DNA of 20,052 nt, from assembly GCF_006345805.1 (NCBI RefSeq), contig NW_021824089.1, positions 1 through 20,052 on the forward strand, in the 5' to 3' direction. The notes beneath the pieces are model-generated. The model was given only the letters and a program-made list of their open reading frames with translations. It did not search any database and had not been told where the DNA came from. This DNA is from Octopus sinensis. Taxonomy: Eukaryota. This document shows positions 3,131-18,724 of this stretch, in pieces (position 1 is the first letter of the stretch; the number at the start of each line of letters is the position of its first letter). Made by a program: the position numbers and the translations under genes.

Positions 3131-3964
3131 CATCTTTTTGTAAGATTCACATAAACATTGTTATATTAGCTGTTTGTACATCGAAAGATATACAATGGAC
3201 TGAAATGAAATGAAGACTATTAAGTGTTAATGAAAATTATTTTAAAAAGATATAAGGGAGGTAACTATCGATATTGCAATTTCGGGATTTCTTACTCTTA
3301 TCCTTTTTGAGGGCAATTTTCATTCCTGTTAATGGCCTTTTCATGTCATTTTAGTTACAGTTTTTATTAAATGGCAATATTTCAAAGAAAGCGAACAAGC
3401 AGAATCGGTAAAGTGTTGGTTAAAATAAAGAATAACGCCTTACAGTATTTGCTCCGATTCTCTGGGCTCTGTCTTCAAATGCTGCAAGAAGTCCACTTCG
3501 CCTTTCATCTTTTCGGGTGGATCAACGAGAAAAAAAAAAAAAAAGAAAGAATCTACCCGTTTGAGTGGGGTTGACTGACAGAATTGTTTGAGCTTAGGAT
3601 GGAATGCCTTATGGGTTCTGCACGAGTCTTGTGCATTCTAAGCACAAGTCCAACCCCGTTTACCCCATCAAAAAAAAAAAAAACACACCCACCAATGGTG
3701 ACATTTCTGCCAGGTGTTGTTAACAACAGATCGTATAAGAAAATTTCAAAAAGACAAAAAAAAACAACAACAAAAACCAATAGAAATATAGCTAGAATGG
3801 TTCGATCGGTAGATCGATTGTCACCATAACAAGATTATCCGTTTAACTACCTGAAGTATGAAGTCTGCACTTGACGATATTTTCTTCATGCATAGGAGAC
3901 TCTTGAAAAAACTTAGCAATGTCGTTATTTGTGATTGAATAACTGTAGATTAATCTGTATTTTG

Positions 3965-7405: not shown

Positions 7406-7796
7406 CTCTTTTGCTCTTTTGCTTGTTTCAGTCATTTGACTGCGGCCACACTGGAGCACCACCTTTGGTCGAACAAATCGACACTAGGACTTATTCTTTG
7501 TAAGCCTAGCACTTATTCTATCGGTCTCTTTTGCCGAACCGTTAAGTTACGGGAACGTAAACACACCAGAATCGGTTGTCAAGCGATGTTGGGGGGACAA
7601 ACACAGACACACACACACACACATACTTATATACGATGGGCTTCTTTCAGTTTCCGTCTACCAAATCCACTCACAAGGCTTTGGTTGGCCCGAGGTTATA
7701 GCAGAAGACACTTGCCCAATGTGCCACGCAGTAGGACTGAACCCAGAACCATGTGGTTCGTAAGGAAGCTACTTACCACACAGCCACTCCTGCACC
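7406..7796 (-). mobile_element. tRNA-derived SINE family A, full length
   Basis: Minus strand: A-box TGGCTGTGTGG, B-box GGTTCAGTCC, TGGGCAAGTGTC segment, internal microsatellite, 3' tail CAGTCAAATGACTGAAACAAG. Six other copies or fragments occur in the window. Confidence 0.9.
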
Positions 7797-7808
7797 TATA
7801 TAAATAAA

Positions 7809-8092: not shown

Positions 8093-8660
8093 TTCTTCTT
8101 TTACTTGTTTAGACATTAGACTGCGGCCATGCCGGAGCACCACCTTCAAGGGGTTTAGTCGAACGAATCGACCGTAGCGTTTTTAAAGCTTGGTACTTAT
8201 TCTATCAAACTCTTATTACGAACCGCTAAGTTACGTGGACATTAAAAAAAACTCAATACCGGTTGACAAACGGTGGTGAGGGACAAAAACAAAGTCACAC
8301 ACACATACATACACACATACACACATAAATACACACGCACACGTACTTACATACACACTTACATACGTACATACATACATGTTTACATACATACATGTTT
8401 ACATACATGTTTACATACATACATACACATGCGCACACAGATATATACATACATACATACATACATACATACATACATACATACATACATACATACATAC
8501 TACGCGATGGGTTCTTTTAGTTTCCGTCAACCAAATCCACTCACAAGTCTTTGGTCAGCTCGGGGCTATAGTAAAAAACACTTGTTCAAAGTTTCACACG
8601 GTGAGACTGAACCCAGAACCACGTAGTTGGGAAGCAAACATCTTACCACACAACCACATT
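8093..8660 (-). mobile_element. SINE family A, diverged copy with expanded internal (TACA)n/(CA)n
   Basis: Both halves align to the other A copies; internal microsatellite ~8296-8500. Confidence 0.85.
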
Positions 8661-9049
8661 CAAAAGAAAGAACCTTTCATTAAAGCTTCATTTTCGTATC
8701 TAGCGATCCTCACAAGTATACAAATATCTCCATATATTATGCTCGATCCGGACTGACCTAGTGTTAAACAACGACAGCAATATGAATATAAAAAGTAAAA
8801 CCCATTCTCTTCTCTGAAATATGGGAGCTAAAAGAAACTGCAAGGAATCTTTATCTTGTAGGTCATGAGAATTATAGAGTTGTAGATGTTCTTCCAGTAA
8901 GTCAAGAGAACGAATCTTTGCTAATTTCCTTTTTAAGACATTCAACTGCAGGTGGGGGCGCCACATATCTTATCTCGGTATGTTCTTGTACCAGGAGAAT
9001 TTAATGATAAGGCGCAAATAAAAAAATATTTCTATGAGTTAGAGGCAAT

Positions 9050-9190: not shown

Positions 9191-9328
9191 TTGTCGATGT
9201 TTTAAGATGTAAAGACGAAGGGTACTGTTTTCCCCTCTGGATACAAGACCAATTTAACGCTAAGAACATTCCGAAAAAATATTGGTTAATATTTTTGAGA
9301 ATTTTAAACTAAAGTTTCTTTCTCTTTC

Positions 9329-9524
9329 TCTCTTACTTGTTTTAGTCATTTGACTGCGGCCATGCTGGAGCACGGCATTTAGTCGAGCAAATCGACTCCA
9401 AGACTTTTTCTTTGTAAGCCTAGTACTTATTCTATTGGTATCTTTTGCCGAACCGCTAAGTTACGGGAACGTAAGCACACCAGCATTGGTTGTCAAGCGA
9501 TGTTGGGGGACAAACAGGGACACA

Positions 9525-9572
<48 letters not shown>

Positions 9573-9793
9573 ACACACACACATATATATATATATACAC
9601 ATATATATATACACACATATATGCGACGGACTTCTTTCAGTTTCCGTCTACCAAATCTTCTACTATAGCCTCGAGCTTTGGTCGGCCCGAGGGTATAGTA
9701 GAAGACACTTGCACGAGATGCCACGCAGTGGGACTGAACCCGGAACCATGTGGTTGGTAACCAAGCTACTTACCACACAGCAACTCCTGCGTC
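9329..9793 (-). mobile_element. SINE family A, full length
   Basis: Colinear with the 7406-7796 and 10665-11109 copies. Confidence 0.9.
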
Positions 9794-10442
9794 TGTTGGA
9801 GAATATTTCAAAAATATTCTTCACAATTTTTCTTTTTATTTTTCCTGGTCCAACCATCGTGGAACATTTCCCTGGTCGATTCCTGTCAATTCTTAATCTA
9901 AGCCAAGCTACGTTATTGTAAGGTGGGAAATTACACACATAGAACAGCATCGAGAGTCCAGGGATAATTTATAACTTGCTGAAAACTATCACTAATTCAC
10001 GAACAGATATAAAACAGTCATTTCTATCGATTTTCCTTTGTACATTCTAGAAACTTGAAACTAATTGGAAATAATTGAAAACCACACGAAGACATGATAT
10101 TACTCCGGTGATATCCTTTCACAAAATGCACATCGCTAATATTTGAAGCGACAAGGTGTTTGTCTTTAAAGCAAATATTCAACTGTTGGACGTTTCATAA
10201 TATTTGTTTCCTCAGCGCCACGAAGAATATAGTAATTTATTACTTGGGTACAAAACCGGTAACTTATTGGAAAAAAATGTAGAAAAACCAAGTGTATGAG
10301 GTCATAATTCAAACGAGTGAGACGAGATAAAAGGCTGTACAAAACTTTTAACGATCAGTTCATTCTGCGTATGAAAATATTCAGCTACCATTTTGTTGTA
10401 GACCTGAGTTAGTCAAATGTTTCTATTTGTTGGAATCGTCTC

Positions 10443-10668: not shown

Positions 10669-11109
10669 TTTTACTCTTTTACTCTTTTACTTGTTTCAGT
10701 CATTTGACTGCGGCCATGCTGGAGCACCGCCTTTAGTCGAGCAAATCGACCCCGGGACTTATTCTTTGTAAGCCCAGTACTTATTCTATCGGTCTATTTT
10801 GCCGAACCGCTAAGTGACGGGGACGTAAACACACCAGCATCGGTTGTCAAGCAATGCTAAGGGGACAAACACAGACACACAAACACACACACACACACAC
10901 ACACACACAACACACACACACATATATATATATATATACATATATACGACAGGCTTCTTTCAGTTTCCGTCTACCAAATCCGCTCACAAGGCATTGGTCG
11001 GCCGGGGGCTATAGCAGAAGACACTTGCCCAAAATGTCACGCAGTGGGACTGAACCCGGAACCATGTCGTTGGTTAGCAAGCTACTTACCACACAGTCAC
11101 TCCTGCGCC
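10665..11109 (-). mobile_element. SINE family A, young full-length copy with (AAAAGAGT)3 tail
   Basis: Nearly identical to the 14879-15293 copy outside the microsatellite. Confidence 0.92.
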
Positions 11110-11118
11110 TATATGTAT

Positions 11119-11164
<46 letters not shown>

Positions 11165-14813: not shown

Positions 14814-14878
<65 letters not shown>
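14170..14878. repeat. (CA)n/(TACA)n/(TA)n/(CT)n microsatellite field with a short unique spacer (~14520-14648)
   Basis: Direct inspection. Confidence 0.9.
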
Positions 14879-14880
<2 letters not shown>

Positions 14881-15291
14881 CGCAGGAGTGGCTGTGTGGT
14901 AAGTAGCTTGCTAACTAACCACATGGTTCCGGGTTCAGTCCCACTGCGTGGCATCTTGGGCAAGTGTCTTCTGCTATAGCCCCGGGCCGACCAATGCCTT
15001 GTGAGTGGATTTGGTAGACGGAAACTGAAAGAAGCCTGTCGTATATATGTATATATATATATATGTATGTGTGTGTTTGTCACCTTAGCATTGCTTGACA
15101 ACCGATGCTGGTGTGTTTACGTCCCCGTCACTTAACGGTTCGGCAAAAGAGACCAATAAATAAGTACTGGGCTTACAAAGAATAAGTCCTGGGGTCGATT
15201 GCTCGACTAAAGGCGGTGCTCCAGCATGGCCACAGTCAAATGACTGAAACAAGTAAAAGAGTAATGACTGAAACAAGTAAAAGAGTAAAGA

Positions 15292-16597: not shown

Positions 16598-16738
16598 TAT
16601 TTTCTACTCTAGGCACAAGGCCCGAAATCTTTGTGGTGGGGGCCAGTCGATTAGATCGACCCCAGTACGCAACTGGTACTTAATTTATCAACCCCCGAAA
16701 GGTAAAGTCGACCTCGTCAGAATTTGAACTCAGAATGT
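16598..16738 (-). mobile_element. SINE family B, 5'-truncated
   Basis: Minus strand TTCTGAGTTCAAATTC...GAGGTCGACTTTACCTTTCG...GATAAATTAAGTACCAG...CTGGGGTCGAT...TTGTGCCTAGAGTAGAA. Confidence 0.85.
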
Positions 16739-16860
16739 ATATATATATACATATATATATACACACACACACATATATATATATATATAATATATATTAT
16801 ATTATGTATATATCTATATATGTATATATATCTATGTATGTATATATAGTATGTATGTTG

Positions 16861-16895
<35 letters not shown>

Positions 16896-17119
16896 TGTGA
16901 AATAGAAAGATGAATAATCTTATTGCAGATTAATCAAAAGTTTAATCAAAAGTTTAACCGATACCTTGGTAGCAAAAATCACAGCAGAAGACAGCACGGT
17001 TGGAGGTACAACCATATGGTGTTGCAACCATGCGTTGGTGCGGATAATTGAATTTTAATATTATTAGTGAATTGAAGAAATGGAGTTGAACGAAGATTGA
17101 ACAGAAATCGTTTTTTGCA

Positions 17120-17200
17120 TTCTACACGTGTTTTCGAAAGCCACAATTTACCAAATTCCGATTGAATAAGGAGACCATATTGTGGCTTTCTCTTCAGGAA
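17120..17200 (-). ncRNA. type I hammerhead ribozyme, left-arm copy (extra A in the GAAA core)
   Basis: Minus strand UUC-CUGAAGA-GAAAGCCACAAU...AUUGUGGCUUUC-GAAA-ACACGUGU-A-GAA. Confidence 0.7.
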
Positions 17201-17415
17201 GAAATAGGAAATCCGTTGGCAAAAACAAAAACAGAACAGAGGCGCAGCAAAACAAATCGAACGAGGCTCCTAAGAGCCCATGGCCCAACTGTTTTATCAA
17301 TGTATGTTGAAATCGGGTGGTGGGTGCGTTGAAGATTTTAACAGGTCAGCCTCGTTCGATTTGTTTTGCTGCGCCTCTGTTCTGTTTTTGTTTTTGCTAA
17401 CGGATTTCCTATTTC

Positions 17416-17495
17416 TTCCTGAAGAGAAAGCCACAATATGGTCTCCTTATTCAATCGGAATTTGGTAAATTGTGGCTTTCGAAACACGTGTAGAA
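17416..17495 (+). ncRNA. type I hammerhead ribozyme with canonical core
   Basis: UUC(17416-18), CUGAAGA(17419-25), 12-bp stem II GAAAGCCACAAU/AUUGUGGCUUUC(17426-37/17469-80), GAA, ACACGUGU(17484-91), A(17492), GAA. G10.1-C11.1 pair present; predicted cleavage after GUA at 17492. Confidence 0.85.
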
Positions 17496-17560
17496 TGCAA
17501 TAAAACGATTCTGTTCAATCTTCGTTCAACTCCATTTCTTCAATTCACTAATAATATTAA

Positions 17561-17580
17561 TATATATATATCTATTATAT

Positions 17581-17616
<36 letters not shown>

Positions 17617-17643
17617 GATATATATATATATATATATATGTTG

Positions 17644-17680
<37 letters not shown>

Positions 17681-17869
17681 TGTGTATGTACTATATGTAG
17701 GTATATATAATATAATTATGTATATATATATATGTATGTATATATAGGTATGTATATATATCAATATGTATATATATGTATATATATATAGGTATGTATA
17801 TATATATGTATGTAATAATATATGTATGTGTTGTATATATATTTATATACGTATATATATTTATATACG

Positions 17870-17902
<33 letters not shown>

Positions 17903-17952
17903 TATATATAATATATATATATATATACATATATTTATGTGTGTGTGTGTAT
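17561..17952. repeat. (TA)n-rich compound microsatellite
   Basis: Direct inspection. Confidence 0.95.
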
Positions 17953-18356: not shown

Positions 18357-18678
18357 ATTTTATTTCATCTAGTTTCAGCTCACGAGCTGTGGCCATGCTG
18401 GGGCACCGCCATTTGGTGTTGCTACATGATTTTACTTCACGAATGCTTTTTAGCAGTTGCCATTTGGTGCATGAGAGAGTTTGATGCAGCTGCCCTCATC
18501 TGCACCTCCTGCCGCGAAGTTGACAGGAAGAGGTCCAGCTTTATTTTGAAGACACCTAAATCAACCCCATGCAGGTCTCTTAGGTCCCTCGGGAGGATAT
18601 TGAAGAGCTGTGGACCTCTGAAGCCCAGGCTATTGCAGTATCTTGTCCTACATCTTGATGGCAAATTTGGAGTCCTTG
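18357..18678 (-). mobile_element. 5'-truncated LINE (CR1/L2-group-like) ORF2 C-terminus plus 3' UTR
   Basis: ORF 18437..18664 NSLGFRGPQLFNILPRDLRDL...VFKIKLDLFLS resembles the post-RT C-terminal 'L(W/F)NxLP...FKxxLD' motif. The 3' UTR ends GGCGGTGCCCCAGCATGGCCACAGCTCGTGAGCTGAAACTAG. Confidence 0.8.
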
Positions 18679-18724
18679 AAGTATTTTTATAATTAGTTTC
18701 AAATTTTAGTCATTACATCCACCA

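Follow-up and report, generated by a model that had tools for sequence, protein, structure and literature searches.

The mirrored, hammerhead-bearing structure described here from Octopus sinensis is best read, with a probability of roughly 90%, as a young Penelope-like retrotransposon, one with Hydra-clade motifs, that entered a (TA)n tract as an inverted and doubly 5′-truncated copy. Most likely it goes back to a single event, in which the protein of the element would have primed two short cDNAs on the two target strands. Both arms are the 3′ pseudo-LTR (pLTR) of the element, which bears the hammerhead. The mirror layout is the usual insertion form of the family, and the copy in the window (the whole stretch of 20,052 nucleotides analysed, an entire 20-kb unplaced contig, C560, in a 2.7-Gb genome) is an ordinary one. 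Opposite-strand hammerhead pairs and 5′-inverted copies are already published (PMC4209133 and PMC8557442, respectively).

Layout of the Insertion

In Table 1 we list the parts of the insertion, measured against L066, a natural full-length copy that serves as the ruler. The two mirrored arms reported by the first-pass annotation (17055-17268 and 17348-17560) are borne out by alignment (213 identical positions, 2 mismatches, 3 one-base indels), and so is the 79-nt gap between them. The foldback unit that had been boxed at 17055..17560 is larger than this; its left arm runs about 160 nt further, to 16893, and the left-arm match extends through 16900 at other genomic loci. The gap had been called a spacer. 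It is not a separate part: it is ordinary sequence of the element, confined to the long arm because that arm extends further 5′ before its truncation.

Table 1. Parts of the inverted insertion in the window
Feature	Position	Strand	Basis or remark
(TA)n target, left	16738..16892	.	
Long arm, 5′-truncated 3′ end of Penelope-like element	16893..17349	-	ruler (L066) positions 3209-3650; 93.9% by blastn to the full-length copy
Tail, about 150 nt between short and long ends, one arm only	16893..17054	-	
Mirror hammerhead motif, extra A in GAAA run (17131-17135)	17120..17200	-	CUGAAGA from 17197
79-nt "spacer", long-arm element sequence	17269..17347	-	blastn to the full-length copy and other loci
Inversion junction, 2-nt microhomology AG	17348..17349	.	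single copy in genome
Short arm, inverted 5′-truncated copy	17348..17563	+	ruler (L066) position 3289 to about 3497-3503
Type I hammerhead motif	17416..17495	+	descriptor match
(TA)n target, right	17560..17938	.	

The long arm finishes at the long (tail) end of the family, the class to which 42 of 87 arm ends in our locus sample belong, and the short arm at the short end (44 of 87), its final bases being ambiguous with (TA)n. The tail contains a 12-bp tandem duplication (16930-16957) found in no other fetched locus. The right flank of the insertion is unique sequence, single-copy in the genome, and a search with it for an empty or allelic site matches the window only. Elsewhere the window holds several copies of SINE-like repeats, 120-260 nt long and in either orientation (7406-7806, 8467-8676, 9320-9794, 10674-11119 and 14818-15158). 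The minus strand at 18437-18709 holds an ORF fragment, without a Pfam match, which we take to resemble the C terminus of a reverse transcriptase (RT) of the LINE type.

The Hammerhead Motif

The plus-strand motif comprises CUGAAGA (17419-17425), a perfect 12-bp stem II (17426-17437 pairing with 17469-17480 around a 31-nt insert), GAAA (17481-17484), the palindromic stem III ACACGUGU (17484-17491) and a GUA that ends at 17492; stem I is 3 bp, and cleavage is predicted after A17492. An opposite-strand mirror with one additional A in its core had been claimed, and a descriptor search recovers it; over the 20 kb and on both strands, the same descriptor finds only these two motifs. The first-pass annotation called the motif a canonical type I hammerhead. 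A real type I hammerhead motif it is, but "canonical" says rather too much, since there is no Rfam match and the monomer fold lies above the minimum.

Checked against Rfam at E ≤ 1, the window yields no hammerhead. A genome search with RF00163, in which 74 of 265,813 candidates were scored, missed the arm family and returned seven motifs that do not belong to it; the long stem II is the likely cause of the miss. For a 100-nt monomer, the hammerhead fold is predicted at -17.5 kcal/mol against -22.6 for the minimum-energy fold, a gap of 5 kcal/mol. Few copies share the perfect stem II: the C at the site occurs in 4 of 84 arms, and most copies are mismatched there. The window also has an Rfam match to MIR847 of 59 bits against a cut-off of 184, an identity that we reject as below the cut-off and merely reflecting the hairpin. 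Another hammerhead family, whose stem II is short and which scores above the Rfam cut-off, occurs at L148, L151, L152 and L153 (e.g., L148:1501-1545). Two same-strand copies of it lie 431 nt apart at C16:25.146 Mb, possibly a tandem retrozyme or pLTR.

Is the motif conserved in the family? We aligned 20 copies chosen across subfamilies, down to about 77% RT identity, keeping L135 and L147 despite their stem III changes. The core (CUGANGA/GAAA/UH) is invariant save at position 7 in 20 of 20 copies, and the stem III palindrome varies from CG to TA or TG. Stem II shows the covariation expected of the proposed ribozyme, 6 of its 12 pairs having changed on both sides. Paired cells make up 89.4% of the alignment, compared with 83.1% when shuffled (0/500) and 31-44% when slid, controls that are lenient in that the consensus structure derives from one aligned row and the rows are related; RNAalifold independently recovers stem II plus the inner hairpin. 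Core invariance and stem II covariation across subfamilies therefore indicate that the hammerhead motif has been kept by the transposon lineage. Metazoan hammerheads of Penelope-like elements (PLEs) cleave poorly, or only with protein, in the cases treated in PMC4209133 and PMC11167929. The 5-kcal/mol gap of the monomer fits both the dimeric, low-activity class and the protein-assisted case. The hammerhead belongs to the RNA of the parent element, in which it would probably cleave weakly, as a dimer or with the help of protein.

The extra A of the minus-strand copy occurs in 3 of 591 genomic core copies, all on small contigs. It is probably a sequencing error and possibly a private mutation. 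Two of the loci, L013 (C3328) and L014 (C656), are one locus assembled twice, with flanks 94-97% identical, and the two assemblies differ at the GAAA run. Indels between arms number 8 in 1060 nt for small contigs and 39 in 8780 nt for chromosomes, a modest excess on the former that lends weak support to an error. Some of the small contigs in the assembly are redundant copies of lower accuracy.

The Parent Element

A single arm used as query yields 2219 candidates, with 53 matches of 97-100% among the 40 scored. One locus, L031, joins both arms to RT and GIY-YIG fragments, and a query with the RT fragment gives 150 scored matches, many of them within long open frames. Around these RT matches we fetched 20 loci, and in 17 the arm lies downstream, in sense orientation, of an ORF of 826-923 amino acids (among them proteins of 908 and 914 amino acids). 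Linkage of the arm to an ORF with RT and GIY-YIG, which had been put forward for checking, is thus confirmed. Five loci (L066, L069, L071, L073 and L076) carry a tandem upstream pLTR. In L066 the unit spans about 3.6 kb between the end of the pLTR and the long end, above the Hydra-clade length of <3 kb. The 3′ flanks of family arms are (TA)n, as read by eye from an unfiltered list. The 3′ UTR of the element at L031:5360-5660 has three imperfect tandem repeats of ~100 bp, about 83% alike; these lie upstream of the hammerhead, and length differs among copies.

RDD and xxY-YxG motifs are present in the ORFs. Among 19 examined (including L066-L084, L128 and L134), 17 have SDKT, i.e., DKT in place of DKG, and 17 have CxxCxxE and CxH, the C-terminal endonuclease (EN) lacking CCHH as judged by eye. 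RIRWL, an RWL variant where homologs have RWR or RWK, occurs in 12 of the 19, the remainder being truncated or divergent. The CxCX5C zinc finger of the linker, present in homologs, is found in none of the 19; a long Ser/Asn-rich stretch precedes the site where it is missing. We found 24 protein homologs, one from Argonauta, and those aligned (11 of 24) have the same motifs plus CxCX5C. Pfam matches GIY-YIG weakly, at E 0.14 on a fragment and not on the full protein, and matches no RT domain in the ORF; a profile of 12 family proteins has no match among solved structures. The identity of the protein is based on the motifs and the 24 homologs. By its motifs we call the element a Hydra-like Penelope family; the Hydra-clade marks of PLEs are those given in section 11 of PMC8557442. 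The absence of CxCX5C and the 3.6-kb unit lead us to say "Hydra-like" rather than to claim full membership. The family targets (TA)n without a linker zinc finger, counter to the proposed link between the linker and microsatellite targeting.

Long and Short Ends across the Genome

Genome-wide, the 23-nt hammerhead core is matched exactly 588 times, compared with 0 for a control pattern. Among the first 100 core matches listed, at least 31 have a neighbor within 10 kb, and 31 of 31 are divergent; scaled to 588, this gives an estimate of ~180 loci with an exact core on both strands. We sampled 48 loci, namely every core match on C1 plus those in the first 114 Mb of C2. This sample is restricted to loci with an exact core and, since it begins from core matches, favors pairs. 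At first pass, 33 loci are pairs of one long and one short arm, 2 pair a long with a slightly shifted short arm, and 13 are single; no long+long or short+short pair occurs in the 48. A second look shows that 4 of the 13 "single" loci are long+short with a small or damaged partner. Every resolved inverted pair (37 of 37) thus has one long and one short end, and 9 of the 48 loci are without an inverted long/short partner.

The two classes of arm end lie about 150 nt apart, one per arm; counted from the predicted cleavage site, the short end comes after about 60 nt and the long end after about 215 nt. Older subfamilies retain both end positions; L079 carries a rearranged end. A complete hammerhead is present on both arms in 21 of 33 clean pairs, statistics from which the complex loci L092, L098, L108, L120, L121 and L021 were omitted. 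Junctions vary between loci, and the junction 25-mer of the window occurs once in 2.7 Gb.

Origin of the Inverted Insertion

How do the arms of a pair relate to each other? Of 33 clean pairs, 19 have a short arm that starts upstream of its partner and a long arm that extends beyond it downstream, and in these neither arm could have been made by folding back on the other. Nesting of the short arm within the long one is seen in 10 of the 33 and also in the window; fold-back copying can thus be discounted at the level of the family, though not for the window copy. Within a locus the two arms carry the same allele at 264 of 270 polymorphic sites, where 165 would be expected if they were independent, and both window arms share the rare stem II allele. 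Mean divergence is 0.9% within loci and 2.1% between them, being lower within in 39 of 43 pairs and not in the other 4; of the 49 pairs, which count both L013 and L014 (neither of them in the 48-locus sample), 6 with an overlap of <60 nt were left out of this comparison. Junction overlaps of 1-7 nt, like the AG of the window, are seen in 15 of 33 pairs. Several junctions cluster at a near-palindrome (ruler position 3263-3281). Two independent insertions with different flanks, L011 (C3:78.90 Mb) and L017 (C7:34.89 Mb), have an identical junction with the long and short roles swapped.

The strict long/short rule, the non-nested arms and the shared alleles point to two cDNAs, two target strands and two fixed sites on the RNA. 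We propose a two-primer model, drawn from genomic products only, in which the GIY-YIG nuclease would nick both strands of (TA)n, reverse transcription would begin at two internal sites on uncleaved RNA from one source, both cDNAs would stall early, and their 3′ ends would be joined head to head through microhomology. The arm data fit equally one RNA read twice and two RNAs of one locus. Comparable behavior is described in PMC11167929 for the Poseidon element PAc of Anolis: in vitro its protein cleaves the two strands and extends both, with RT starting at two internal sites, and the same source has a predicted dimer, uncleaved RNA as the template and protein-assisted cleavage. Likewise, 5′-inverted copies, a one-sided tail and (TA)n targeting are among the PLE features treated in PMC8557442. 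An unlikely competitor dispenses with dual priming: one cDNA folds back or switches template, and the endonuclease then cuts at two fixed sites. It would agree with the attribution of the tail to EN-mediated resolution in a passage of PMC8557442 and with the nested short arms, that of the window included, while the high within-locus identity is compatible with any one-template model. However, simple fold-back copying cannot yield the 19 non-nested pairs, and the tail of PAc in vitro is, according to PMC11167929, the stretch between two RT start sites.

Other readings start from the locus itself. The first-pass annotation saw a young non-coding inverted pLTR or retrozyme-like unit, of which the young, inverted, Penelope-like pLTR stands and the retrozyme-like part does not: there is no tandem array, the junction is single-copy, and what the arms represent is the terminal stretch of an element that encodes protein. 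That a non-autonomous foldback unit, retrozyme-like or MITE-like, spreads as such is suggested by how short, non-coding and hammerhead-bearing the window unit is, and retrozymes are reported as pLTR-derived (bioRxiv 10.64898/2026.07.22.740005). We nevertheless regard it as highly improbable, since a junction that occurs once and differs from those of other loci is not that of a spreading retrozyme or MITE; none of the at least 31 close pairs among the first 100 core matches listed is a same-strand tandem, and the arms terminate at retroelement ends instead of shared terminal inverted repeats. An assembly or chimeric-read artefact might be suspected where the window is a whole unplaced contig with 3 indels between its arms, and the junction is unseen among the listed pieces of four public runs, which neither confirm nor deny the locus. 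Such an artefact is very unlikely, and the inversion is most likely genuine: a fold-back chimera would mirror the flank too, which is unique here, each arm stops at one of the two natural ends of the family, and chromosome-scale contigs show the like form with other junctions.

A further reading is a host-selected RNA switch, in which read-through RNA would toggle between a dsRNA rod and a self-cleaving fold. The rod stands as a prediction (-391 kcal/mol), but it is nothing locus-specific, being the same for any such insertion; each arm holds the whole motif, and with 21 of 33 pairs alike in this respect many loci could give hairpin RNA. On either strand, however, the antisense arm precedes the ribozyme; as it is transcribed first, the rod would always win, which would make a block and not a toggle. 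The monomer gap, the youth and single-copy state of the insertion and the poor or protein-dependent cleavage reported for metazoan PLE hammerheads (PMC4209133 and PMC11167929) also count against a switch, to which we give hardly any credence. At the Pfam cut-off no host exon is found among 77 window ORFs (there is one weak 7TM match), and among the pieces listed from the four public runs none crosses the junction, only fragmented family contigs being present; run X12, presumably RNA, has family-level contigs only among those listed. We see no A>G/T>C excess in the public-run contigs, which drop rare variants. A wastewater metatranscriptome run (X20) contains a fraction of 0.22 of the repeat's words and carries no evidential weight. 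The built-in off switch and viroid-like design once suggested for this locus thus give way to the usual integration product, with no host exon and no locus-specific RNA found, and there is no evidence for a selected function of either kind. Under the two-primer model, the two hammerheads at the window locus would be passengers, and read-through RNA would fold as an inactive rod.

Relation to Known Elements

Close likeness is shown by the Hydra-clade PLEs described in PMC8557442 (Craig et al. 2021; e.g., Penelope-13_HM, Hydra-1_Obim). These share with our family a C-terminal GIY-YIG, DKT, the lack of CCHH, CxxC and CxH around the E/N, a hammerhead near the 3′ end and (TA)n targets, and the supplement lists Penelope-13_HM with a 5′-truncated inverted copy and a hammerhead on each strand. 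The family differs in its ORF of about 900 amino acids and 3.6-kb unit (the clade is usually <3 kb), in having RWL instead of RWK, in the loss of the linker CxCX5C, and in a tail of about 150 nt against 30-40 in the clade. Its hammerhead sequence, with a long stem II and an apical hairpin, is also unlike the one listed for Hydra-1_oBim.

The minimal or dimeric type I metazoan PLE hammerheads of PMC4209133 (Cervera and de la Pena 2014) have the same short helix I, long helix II and palindromic helix III, and opposite-strand pairs 100-700 bp apart are reported there from Schistosoma. In comparison, our stem II exceeds theirs in length, with up to 12 bp and an inner hairpin besides, and there is no unpaired base between positions 9 and 10.1. 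PAc (Frangieh et al. 2024, PMC11167929) shares two fixed 3′ ends that define a tail, AT-rich targets and a hammerhead copied intact into insertions. It belongs to another clade, and its hammerhead overlaps the start codon and its RT starts inside the ORF, whereas both ends of our family lie upstream of the ATG. Non-LTR retrozymes are likewise non-coding, pLTR-derived and equipped with a type I hammerhead, but as described in bioRxiv 10.64898/2026.07.22.740005 they are head-to-tail tandem arrays that amplify as units, in contrast to the one-off head-to-head pair of the window.

Implications

It is tempting to hypothesize a more general rule. In this family a long end is strictly paired with a short one in all inverted insertions that could be resolved, and the arms, though often non-nested, would derive from a single source RNA; we are inclined to think that PLEs integrate by paired priming, with one RT start site for each target strand and a likely asymmetric dimer, and that (TA)n targeting survives the loss of the linker zinc finger. 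How the inverted ends and the tail of PLEs form is posed as a question in section 15 of PMC8557442. Our literature search, which covered few subscription papers and repeat databases, found no published count of long/short polarity and no description of this family. The ~180 hairpin loci estimated for this genome may also be a source of RNA through which the family is silenced by small RNAs or edited from A to I. The family itself is a useful model, being young and abundant, with many open ORFs and a clean insertion footprint. If paired priming is true, the polarity rule would be in vivo, genome-scale evidence for it in Penelope-like elements.
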